A stretch of 4,532 nt of DNA, taken from a virus (lineage: Duplodnaviria > Heunggongvirae > Uroviricota > Caudoviricetes). The translations under genes were made by a program, and so were the position numbers. Where the stretch lies: the IMG/VR virus record IMGVR_UViG_2711768008_000012; one strand, 5' to 3'. This document shows positions 1-4,532 of the stretch, piece after piece (position 1 is the first letter of the stretch; the number at the start of each line of letters is the position of its first letter). The notes beneath the pieces are model-generated. The model saw nothing but the letters and a program-made list of their open reading frames with translations, was not told where the DNA came from and did not search any database.

Positions 1-60
1 CTCTCGTCTGGGGAATATCTCCCCGGCAGCCTTCAGGGAAAAATATCATCAGATGGCTGC

Positions 61-414
61 TTAAAAAAAGAACAAATGGTAGTGTCCGCTATTGCCAGTA
101 CACCTCAATTGCTCTGCGGCTTCGCTCAGAGCTGGCGTATGTTCCCGGCCTACTGATTCACACAGGTAATCAACGAAACCGGACACCAGTTTTCGTTCGC
201 GAGGCGTGATCGCCCCACCGACCGGAGTCCAGTAATCGAAACCCAGTTGCAGGAGTTTGAAAAAACGCTTGTGGAATGCGTAGTTACACACACGCTTAAA
301 GTCTGCGTGTATCCACTCACCTATTTTGATTTGATGCAGAAAATCGCAACTCTCCGGCGTCGCCGGGAGAAGTAATCCGGAAGAGGTTTGTTTGACCAGT
401 TGTATATGTGCCAT
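61..414 (-). CDS. hypothetical prophage protein, about 117 aa from the ATG at 414 (ORF-track frame extends to 456)
   Basis: Open minus-strand frame 61..456. The ORF-track start at 456 is actually TTG (plus 454-456 caa) overlapping the upstream stop and gives an odd Cys-rich N-terminus (MNSCCVTPCH). The first ATG is at 414..412 with GGAG 7 nt upstream (plus 423-426 ctcc). No family recognised from sequence alone. Confidence 0.5.
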   Translation of the reverse strand: MAHIQLVKQTSSGLLLPATPESCDFLHQIKIGEWIHADFKRVCNYAFHKRFFKLLQLGFDYWTPVGGAITPRERKLVSGFVDYLCESVGREHTPALSEAAEQLRCTGNSGHYHLFFF

Positions 415-452
415 CGGCTTTCTCCGGTGGCACGGTGTTACACAGCAGGAGT

Positions 453-740
453 TCAATCCTGCTCAAGATTGTAGATGAGTTTATTCTTCAGCAAAAGCAG
501 AAAACCAGCCTTAAAACCAATCTCTTTCAAAACCCGTAATGATGTGACAAATTCGTCCTCACGCAAAATAAAACCGTCCGTCAGAAGTCCATTACAAAAA
601 TAAAATAACACAGCACCGCTCTTCCTTTGTTGAGATTGCAAACATCTAATGCGGCAATGGCTGACAATCGCTCCATTCTCAACGCGCACAGCATAGAGGC
701 CATTTTCACTAAAAATTTCACGCAATTCTTCGATTTTCAT
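453..740 (-). CDS. hypothetical small prophage protein (95 aa)
   Basis: ATG at 740..738 preceded by GGAAGGA about 8 nt upstream; TGA stop at 455..453. A sigma70-like promoter lies upstream (822..849). No recognisable family. Confidence 0.5.
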   Translation of the reverse strand: MKIEELREIFSENGLYAVRVENGAIVSHCRIRCLQSQQRKSGAVLFYFCNGLLTDGFILREDEFVTSLRVLKEIGFKAGFLLLLKNKLIYNLEQD

Positions 741-989: not shown

Positions 990-1145
990 TTACTTCCTGG
1001 ATTCGTAGTCTACGAAGACAGCGACCTCCGTCTGGCCGGTTCGGATTCGTACCTCACAGAGGTCTTTCCTCGTTACCAGTGCCGTCACTATGACGGTTAA
1101 ACAGATGACGATCAGGGCGATTAACATCGCCTTTTGCTGCTTCAT
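990..1145 (-). CDS. hokD: Hok/Gef-family type I toxin (51 aa), hokD/relF-like
   Basis: Translation MKQQKAMLIALIVICLTVIVTALVTRKDLCEVRIRTGQTEVAVFVDYESRK matches my recollection of E. coli HokD/HokC over the first ~44 residues (single TM helix, conserved RKDLCEV and TEVAVF). ATG at 1145..1143 with AAGGAG 9 nt upstream; TAA stop at 992..990. The 70-aa ORF in the track is an in-frame 5' extension from the ATG at 1202. Confidence 0.85.
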   Translation of the reverse strand: MKQQKAMLIALIVICLTVIVTALVTRKDLCEVRIRTGQTEVAVFVDYESRK

Positions 1146-1303
1146 AGCCTGCTTCTCCTTGCCTTTCGGCATGTAAGAGGCTAACCTACATGTGCAAAGC
1201 ATGAAATTGGCCTCAGATTAATGTTAAGCGTCTTGCCGGACGCGTAATGTTAACTGGGGCTTTTCTCTATCTGCCTTTTGGTGTTCATGCCTGAAGCAGA
1301 TAG

Positions 1304-1372: not shown

Positions 1373-2059
1373 TCACTCCTTCTCTTCTTTACCGTAGTGG
1401 AGTTGACCAATTTTGATAAGAGGGCGTCCCTGAGATTTGCGGTGTAGATTGGTATCGCGCAGAGAATACACACAGCCACAATATTCCTGCTGATAGAATT
1501 TTTCGCGCTTGCTGATTTCAATCATACGGGACGAGCCGCCCTGCTTGCGCCAGTTATAATCCCAGTACACCATGCCCGGATAATGCGCGACGGCTCGCCG
1601 CCCACAGTCGTTAACCTGCTGCATATTTTTCCAGCGTGAAATGCCCAGTGAACTGCTGATCACACTGAAACCATTTTCAGCGGCGTACAGCGCTGTCCGC
1701 TCAAAACGCATGTCAAAACACATGGTGCAACGGATCCCTCGTTCGGGCTCCCATTCCATTCCTTTGGCTCGTTCAAACCAGTTGTCTGTGTCGTAATCAG
1801 CATCAATAAACGGCACGCCGTGTTGTTCAGCAAAGCGAATATTCTCATCCTTACGAATTAAATACTCTTTCTGAGGATGAATGTTCGGGTTGTAGAAAAA
1901 GATGGTGTAGTCGATTCCCGAGGCCTGAAGCGCCTCCATCACCTCACCGGAACATGGAGCACAGCAAGAGTGCAGTAGTAGTTTGTTTGCCCCGTTTGGG
2001 AGCTCCAATTTGGGCCGTTTGAAATCAGCAACTGTCATAAATATGTTTATTGGGGTCAT
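1373..2059 (-). CDS. queH: DUF208 / QueH-like protein (epoxyqueuosine reductase family), 228 aa
   Basis: Contains the motifs I associate with QueH/DUF208: [11 protein letters not shown] near the N-terminus, [23 protein letters not shown], and [11 protein letters not shown] near the C-terminus. ATG at 2059..2057 has no obvious Shine-Dalgarno; an internal ATG at residue 8 is an alternative start. Confidence 0.75.
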
Positions 2060-3057: not shown

Positions 3058-3744
3058 CTACTTAACAACCCTCGAATGGCTAACATTCGGACGCCAGCTC
3101 TCCCAGTTAAAATTCACCCAGCGCCCGCCGTNNNNNNNNNNNNNNNNNNNNNNNNNNNNNNNNNNNNNNNNNNNNNNNNNNNNNNNNNNNNNNNNNNNNN
3201 NNNNNNNNNNNNNNNNNNNNNNNNNNNNNNNNNNNNNNNNNNNNNNNNNNNNNNNNNNNNNNNNNNNNNNNNNNNNNNNNNNNNNNNNNNNNNNNNNNNN
3301 NNNNNNNNNNNNNNNNNNNNNNNNNNNNNNNNNNNNNNNNNNNNNNNNNNNNNNNNNNNNNNNNNNNNNNNNNNNNNNNNNGATAGCTGCCGCTAAGTGA
3401 TTCTTCCCGGTACCAGGTTTTCCGCTGAACGCAAAATTTGTACACCCGGTCATCAGTTCATCGGCGATGGATTTCGCCTGGCTTAACGCGTATCGCTGGC
3501 CGTCGTTCTGCACCTGGTAATTCGCAAACGAGCATTTACGGTGCAACGGCTGGATGCCTGAGCGATTCAGAATTTTTTCCACCCGCAACTGGCGATTCAG
3601 GCGGTTGATCTCCTCGCTACGTTTCTGGCCTTCAGCAAGTTGCCACTCGCGCCACTCCGCTACCGTTCTGAATGGGGCGGTTACATGTGGCGGGGTCAGT
3701 CGGCGGATGCGTTCCAGAACGCCGCCTGTCGCAATATTTTTCAT
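3058..3744 (-). CDS. dnaC: DnaC-like replicative helicase loader (AAA+ ATPase), interrupted by the N-run
   Basis: The N-terminal 121 residues align closely with E. coli DnaC as I recall it, up to the Walker A motif (NRSGIQPLHRKCSFANY...FSGKPGTGKNHLAAAI). The C-terminal tail after the gap (RWVNFNWESWRPNVSHSRV) matches the DnaC C-terminus (LWVIFNWDSYRSRV). The central ~84 codons are N (3132-3381). The ATG at 3744 is 6 nt downstream of the upstream gene stop. Confidence 0.85.
   Translation of the reverse strand: MKNIATGGVLERIRRLTPPHVTAPFRTVAEWREWQLAEGQKRSEEINRLNRQLRVEKILNRSGIQPLHRKCSFANYQVQNDGQRYALSQAKSIADELMTGCTNFAFSGKPGTGKNHLAAAIXXXXXXXXXXXXXXXXXXXXXXXXXXXXXXXXXXXXXXXXXXXXXXXXXXXXXXXXXXXXXXXXXXXXXXXXXXXXXXXXXXXXGGRWVNFNWESWRPNVSHSRVVK
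3132..3381. other. 250-nt run of N (assembly gap or masked sequence)
   Basis: Directly visible in the sequence; it lies inside the DnaC-like CDS and its content cannot be assessed. Confidence 0.99.
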
Positions 3745-3750
3745 GGTCCG

Positions 3751-4427
3751 TTACCCCCTGAAGCCTGGCGGGATCGCACTGTCCGGCAACGAGACGGTGT
3801 TAACCTGTCGGAGCAACGTCTCAGGCCGAACACCTTTCGGCGCGAACAGGCCCTGGTATTCATTGGCGATGCTGTGTCGAATCACCTGCTCAGGTGTAAA
3901 ACCCTGCTGACGGAATTTTTCCAGTTCCCGTATCGCCCCGTTAGCGCCCTGCTCCGTTCGAATCGGTTTTCGCAATGCCTGTCTGAACCGGACCCACTCA
4001 TGCCAGAGTGTTTCCGGCAACCAATCGGGCAGCTCAATAGCCTCCGGCTCGAATTTTTTAGACGCTCGTTTTTGGCGAGGGGGAGATCAGTATTTAGATC
4101 TTCCTCTTCCTCTTCCTCTGGTAACGCTTTTTGATCCGTTTGTGTAACGCTGGCAGCGTTACCTTTTCGTTTCAGTTCGCGTATTTTTGTTACTCGCTCG
4201 TTTGTAACCGCCCGTTTTTTTTAGAGCTTTTTCCGTTATGACGTTCAAAGTTAGGTAGAGAAAGCCCTCCGTCATTTTCGACCAGCCATCCAACCTGAAT
4301 TAACGCATCAGCAAAACCAGACATAAAAGTGATGCGATCTATTGCACTTTTTGTAACGCCGCGAGCGTTACAATCTGCATTACCGTCTATCATTTGTTGA
4401 TCCGCCCATGCCCAGAAGCGAATAACC
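3751..4427 (-). pseudogene. phage replication-initiator gene with DnaT-like C-terminal domain; 5'-truncated by the IS and frame-disrupted
   Basis: The C-terminal segment (frame of ORF 3751..4020) ends ...VNTVSLPDSAIPPGFRG, matching the E. coli DnaT C-terminus as I recall it (...NTVSEPDSQIPPGFRG). The N-terminal segment (ORF 4190..4453) is in a different frame. An intermediate frame encodes a plausible acidic linker (…ALPEEEEEEDLNTDLPLAKNERL…). The apparent start at 4453 is a GTG inside the IS terminus, so the true 5' end is missing. Confidence 0.6.
4099..4119 (-). repeat. (GAGGAA)3 hexanucleotide repeat encoding a poly-Glu stretch
   Basis: Plus-strand tcttcctcttcctcttcctct; on the minus strand GAG GAA x3 in the linker frame of the replication pseudogene. 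Confidence 0.8.
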
Positions 4428-4532
4428 TGAGGTAGCCTGAGTTTAACGGACACTCCTTCCTGAAATAGAATGGCATCAGAAGGAGCTAATAATGAGCAGA
4501 AAAACCCAACGTTACTCTAAAGAGTTCAAAGC
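4428..4532 (+). mobile_element. left end of an IS3-family insertion sequence (IS600-like), continuing past the window
   Basis: Starts with TGAGGTAGCCTGAGTTTAACGGACAC, i.e. a TG terminus and a GGACAC motif about 20 nt in, as in IS3-family inverted repeats. About 64 nt later comes AGGAG then ATG at 4492 encoding MSRKTQRYSKEFK, a typical IS3-family OrfA N-terminus (compare the IS911 KRNFSAEFK pattern). Confidence 0.65.
4492..4532 (+). CDS. IS3-family transposase OrfA, N-terminal fragment (runs off the window)
   Basis: ATG at 4492 with AGGAG 7-8 nt upstream; translation MSRKTQRYSKEFK. Confidence 0.6.
   Translation, partial: MSRKTQRYSKEFK

Follow-up and report, generated by a model that had tools for sequence, protein, structure and literature searches.

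Decay of a YdaU-family replication initiator gene in a Rac-like prophage of Shigella sonnei through an IS600 insertion and two small indels

In Escherichia coli, in phage Rac and in S. sonnei, the replication initiator gene of Rac-like prophages lies between ydaT and ydaV (ydaT - initiator - ydaV). This places it upstream of a DnaC/P-like loader, which is the position of an initiator in a lambdoid replication module. The intact genes are annotated under several names: 'phage replication initiator YdaU family protein' in one E. coli record (WP_001737256.1), ydaU in phage Rac 442/2 (QGT53750.1) and 'DNA replication protein O' in vB_EcoS phages. Two features of Shigella genomes bear on such genes. 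During genome reduction, the expansion of IS600, IS1, IS2 and other insertion sequences drives pseudogene formation, and transcriptional slippage can occur on long A/T runs, as in mxiE. Among publications on replication of the ydaU/Rac type and on pseudogenes formed by IS600 in S. sonnei, we found nothing specific to the locus described here. The window analyzed is a stretch of 4,532 nucleotides from a Caudoviricetes virus record (IMGVR_UViG_2711768008_000012). With high confidence, we read its initiator locus as a non-functional replication-initiator remnant of a Rac-like lambdoid prophage of S. sonnei that carries three independent real mutations.

The remnant lies on the minus strand at positions 3751..4427 and, by homolog alignment, corresponds to codons 36-262 of a YdaU-family, lambda-O-like initiator gene. 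A megablast search of complete E. coli genomes and phages returned intact genes of 789 bp encoding a product of 262 aa. At the DNA level, the intact E. coli copies were 97-98% identical to the window remnant and the phage Rac copy was 93% identical. The product of an intact gene (L001:1398-2186; L numbers are our own handles for the compared loci) matched phrog_2509, 'replication initiation protein', over residues 1-262 (E 1.2e-89). Its last 93 residues matched the C-terminal domain of DnaT (PDB 2RU8, E 9.5e-5; 9ZBT, E 3e-4), in an alignment that covers DnaT residues 92-179 and takes in the terminal NTVS-PDS-IPPGFRG motif. The likeness to DnaT, the primosomal/replication-restart protein of E. 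coli, is limited to this domain. The sole NCBIfam match for the intact protein or its fragments was a sub-threshold one to the DnaT model, at 16 bits against a cut-off of 201, and the protein is therefore not DnaT. At E <= 0.01, neither the intact 262-aa homolog nor the fragments matched any Pfam family, PF07120/DUF1376 included. By contrast, the K-12-type YdaU of 285 aa, present in L010, has PF07120, and the C-terminal 124 residues are the only part that the two variants share (81% identity). The absence of PF07120 and the match restricted to these 124 residues indicate that the N-terminal half is a different initiator module. The intact gene encodes an initiator whose N-terminal half is O-like and whose C-terminal domain is DnaT-like, with a poly-Glu linker between them. 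A first-pass annotation of the window had proposed an initiator of replication with a C-terminus like that of DnaT, and phrog_2509, PDB 2RU8 and the ydaT/ydaV neighbours bear this out. Compared with other YdaU-family initiators, the window copy is a non-functional member, in which codons 1-35 are absent and the reading frame is broken by two indels; in place of an uninterrupted ORF we found IS600 at codon 36, an A-run longer by two bases and a 10-bp deletion.

The downstream partner of the initiator is ydaV, a DnaC-like helicase loader gene at 3058..3744 on the minus strand, identified from the homolog annotation (ydaV/ATP-binding protein). In the S. sonnei loci, its product carries the Pfam domains IstB_IS21/Bac_DnaA. 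The gene is partly masked in the window: 250 N at 3132-3381 replace 310 bases in each relative compared (L001, L004, L006 and L029). The mask thus makes the ydaV ORF seem 60 bases (20 codons) too short for a gene that really measures 747 bp, and positions on one side of the masked run differ by 60 from those of the true sequence.

Homology to ydaU stops at 4427/4428. The segment beyond this point, 4428..4532, begins TGAGGTAGCC and is the 5' end of an IS600 on the plus strand, inserted into codon 36, with the ATG of orfA at 4492 encoding MSRKTQRYSKEFK. A complete 1.2-kb copy of the element is held by S. sonnei locus L006. This copy is 100% identical over 1,243 bases to sequences from S. sonnei plasmids that bear the annotation 'IS3-like element IS600 family transposase', and its transposase matched NCBIfam transpos_IS3 (E 1.1e-99). 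The start of ydaU and its first 35 codons are found in L006 beyond the far side of IS600. The flanks of the element there read ...GGGAAGGT, IS600, GGTTATTCG..., against GGGAAGGTTATTCG in the intact gene, with GGT on both sides. According to these flanks, the GGT at 4425..4427 of the window (minus strand) is one copy of the 3-bp IS600 target-site duplication. The insertion also changes the reading of the 87-aa ORF at 4190..4453 (minus strand), which by translation is chimeric, with an IS600-derived start, ydaU from codon 36 onward and an out-of-frame tail past the A8 run described below. Because 4428-4532 is IS600, this ORF takes its GTG at 4453 and its first 8-9 codons from the IS. The first-pass annotation had taken 4453..4190 for the N-terminal frame of the gene itself; the true first 35 codons lie across IS600, and both the truncation by IS600 and the 10-bp deletion had been missed.

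A second IS600 copy bounds the other end of the window. Its 3' end, at 1..108 on the plus strand, has the same orientation as the first, is 100% identical to the end of the L006 element and cuts a DUF1367 gene; homology to the intact E. coli prophage begins at 108, within that gene. The DUF1367 gene (61-456, minus strand) is cut after about 102 of its 199 codons. A 4.3-kb prophage segment is thus enclosed by directly oriented IS600 copies, so that many draft assemblies yield it as a contig of 2-5 kb. In the S. sonnei drafts L010 and L013-L015, several of them Illumina assemblies, with IS600 at about 4806-5962, the left side of the element is joined to a different Rac-like module that comprises the 285-aa DUF1376 YdaU and a truncated ydaV, and in L013 the remnant appears twice. 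These joins probably reflect either rearrangement mediated by the IS or chimeric assembly across copies of IS600.

Positions 3700-4532 were translated in all three minus-strand frames. Frame 1 covered 4453..4190, frame 0 opened at 4220 and carried ...KKRAVTNERVTKIRELKRKGNAASVTQTDQKALPEEEEEEDLNTDLPL..., and frame 2 covered 4086..3751, ending with FRG and a stop codon at 3751. Each of the two transitions between frames amounts to a net -1 shift. This recomputation agreed with the manual tracing of the first-pass annotation as to the three frames, the T8 run at 4215-4222 and the T6 run at 4054-4059. The repair suggested there, one base added at each run, does produce a continuous ORF, but the resulting peptide differs from the true protein: it reads SSKKK at the first run, and it has LAKNERLK in place of the true LNPPRQKRASK.

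At the first break, the coding strand was seen by alignment to have A8 (T8 on the plus strand; 4215..4222, minus strand) where three intact homologs carry A6 (GCTCT-AAAAAA-CGGG). A8 instead of A6 means two extra bases, which is the frame equivalent of one missing base. The run is therefore not one base short, as had been proposed, since intact homologs carry A6 and not A9. None of the 147 complete E. coli genomes that cover the A-run stretch was at least 99% identical to it, and the matching subjects measured 122 bases against a query of 124. A single E. coli assembly (H81) gave a match of 123 bases, consistent with A7. The A8 run was absent from the 5,426 complete E. coli genomes searched and present in 10 of the 10 S. 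sonnei loci read. When contigs of species-representative genomes were scanned with an A-run of variable length, only S. flexneri SFBU1023 and E. coli ECMA0423 were retrieved, both with A6.

The second break lies at a retained 7-bp direct repeat, TCCCCCT, at 4078..4084 (minus strand), which alignment identified as the junction of a 10-bp deletion (TCCCCCTAAA). Homologs read GATC-TCCCCCT-AAA-TCCCCCT-CGCC, against GATC-TCCCCCT-CGCC in the window, and TCCCCCTAAATCCCCCT is the undeleted form of the site. One copy of the 7-bp repeat and the 3-bp spacer are lost, with a net shift of -1. Read along the coding strand, the deletion comes about 20 bases before the T6/A6 run at 4054..4059 (minus strand), to which the second break had been assigned. 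This run is not a lesion: L001, L002 and the S. sonnei loci have the identical A6, not A7, and phage Rac (L003) has AAACAA, a Rac-type variant. A 47-nt query spanning the deletion junction had no match in the 5,426 complete E. coli genomes, and the junction was present in all ten S. sonnei loci read. Contigs with partial C-terminal products all begin within or just past the CCCCCT repeat. In a BLAST comparison of E. coli FDAARGOS_944 with window positions 3382-4428 (1,047 bases, including part of ydaV), we counted a single mismatch and two gap openings with 12 gap bases in all. Once two A's were removed and TCCCCCTAAA was restored, the translation matched the intact protein of 262 aa exactly over residues 36-262.

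The first-pass annotation had offered two main readings of the breaks, sequencing undercalls in a draft assembly or genuine decay. Miscalled homopolymer lengths in a gene that is really intact could be suspected, since the first break sits in an 8-base homopolymer and the window resembles a short, IS-bounded draft contig. However, the ten S. sonnei loci come from different assemblies, including contigs of 4.8 Mb, and all ten carry both A8 and the deletion junction, which excludes a sequencing error. Outside the masked N run, the window was 100% identical to S. sonnei L006, L007, L014 and L015. The exact 87-aa ORF, which depends on both the IS junction and A8, was found in 481 index blocks and on 492 contigs, and its protein is named 'putative bacteriophage protein [Shigella sonnei]', for example FORC11_0721. 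Moreover, the second lesion is a 10-bp deletion and no homopolymer miscall. The rest of the window, compared with the intact E. coli prophage over 3,024 bases, showed 4 mismatches and 0 gaps, and 14 of 14 other window homopolymers of 5 or more bases were unchanged, so that no further indel accompanies the two breaks. Whatever the status of these indels, IS600 interrupts the gene. An artefact of sequencing or assembly is accordingly extremely improbable, and the undercall reading is refuted by identical sequence in many independent S. sonnei assemblies. The lesions were read directly in these assemblies and are common to all those examined with the codon-36 IS600 insertion; the suggestion of genuine decay was correct.

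Two functional readings of the A-runs were weighed against decay. According to one, already mentioned in the first-pass annotation as a less likely alternative, the three frames would be joined at A-rich heptamers, either by two programmed -1 frameshifts of the ribosome or by transcriptional slippage. Both shifts are indeed -1, and the first break has A AAA AAC, which in the upstream frame formally fits the X XXY YYZ heptamer pattern. Against this, all intact homologs have one continuous frame with A6, which excludes programmed frameshifting. The second frame change comes from the 10-bp deletion, which precedes the proposed heptamer by about 20 bases; A AAA AAT at that second site fits the heptamer only in the frame created by the deletion, and a shift there would give the wrong peptide. 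In addition, the native start, the ribosome-binding site and 35 codons are lost to IS600. The split-frame arrangement is not conserved, as it is confined to one clonal lineage, intact homologs being single-frame and A8 and the junction being absent in the 5,426 complete E. coli genomes. The single-frame homologs, a second 'slippery site' that is not the lesion and the lost 5' end together refute slippage, and we give recoding of either kind practically no chance. The other reading starts from variation of the A-run, which in a few contigs labelled S. sonnei (L016-L018), all without IS600 at codon 36, is an in-frame A9 (SSKKKRAV). All three have the same prophage, and the upstream sequence of L017 and L018 was 99.87% identical to L006; strains with A9 include GCA_025275415.1, GCA_043803265.1 and SRR32959839. 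In L018 (L018:1431-1868), an IS600 end directly follows codon 136 (GATCAAAAAGCG joined to TGAGGTAGCC), and this is an independent insertion in the same gene. Given the A9 allele in contigs without the codon-36 element, the source of A8 could be A9, with one base lost, or A6, with two gained. A hypermutable run might have made the prophage initiator alternate between on and off states until the gene was otherwise destroyed, in the manner of a contingency locus. Three run lengths in close relatives (A6, A8 and in-frame A9), together with the E. coli match from H81 that is consistent with A7, speak for such a history. Runs longer than A6, however, were found only in copies that are also broken by IS600, which is what neutral drift would produce once the gene is dead, and E. 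coli genomes with the intact gene are essentially uniform in A6. We regard this history as very unlikely. Even less likely is the extended idea that the A-run serves as a phase-variable switch on replication in otherwise intact prophages, with the S. sonnei copy frozen in the 'off' state.

Decay by three real mutations is therefore the reading that we retain. An IS600 copy entered codon 36, duplicating GGT, and cut off the promoter, the start codon and the first 35 codons. The coding-strand A-run at 4215-4222 would have slipped to A8 from the A6 seen in functional homologs. The 10-bp deletion within TCCCCCT-AAA-TCCCCCT, in which one repeat and the spacer are lost, is as expected of slipped-strand mispairing. 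Both slippage mechanisms, as well as the order of the events, are what we infer from the sequence comparisons. If correct, no initiator-like product could be made from this copy. The locus is a pseudogene produced by IS600 insertion and two small slippage-type indels, which is ordinary decay of a kind already known. It resembles other IS-driven Shigella pseudogenes in the presence of IS600 with a 3-bp duplication inside a prophage gene, in the further flanking IS600 copies and in the added small indels; we found no difference, and the S. sonnei initiator remnant is a typical instance. Its biological weight is small, as one more prophage gene inactivated in an IS-laden, decaying S. sonnei genome. 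What it offers is three lessons of method. In a zone where frames overlap, the frame is repairable at any homopolymer, so that frame arithmetic alone misplaces the lesions; a net -1 shift may stem from +2 or from -10; and an apparent start codon may belong to an inserted IS.

Several other features of the segment were recorded. The poly-Glu linker is encoded by a tandem repeat, (GAGGAA)n, at 4099..4119 (minus strand), for which TRF gave a period of 6 and 3.5 copies. We counted n=3 in the window and in intact E. coli homologs, n=6 in L008, L009 and L011, and n=7 in L012, the latter four being S. sonnei assemblies. The sequence is a variable-number tandem repeat lying within the pseudogene, and a potential typing locus; as both the A-run and (GAGGAA)n vary between strains, they are possible minor typing markers. 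Two 19-bp palindromes, GTAACGC-N5-GCGTTAC, were located at 4144-4162 and 4353-4371 (0 expected by chance), and a cluster of five GTTAC/GTAAC motifs was observed within 88 bases at 4121-4208, in the linker-coding part of the initiator gene. This layout is conserved in the E. coli homologs and recalls the ori-lambda iterons inside gene O; by analogy, the cluster may mark a putative prophage origin. Finally, two genes appear intact in the otherwise decaying prophage segment: a hokD-type toxin ORF at 990-1202 (minus strand; 70 aa as listed, HOK_GEF) and a gene for QueH (epoxyqueuosine reductase) at 1373-2059 (minus strand).
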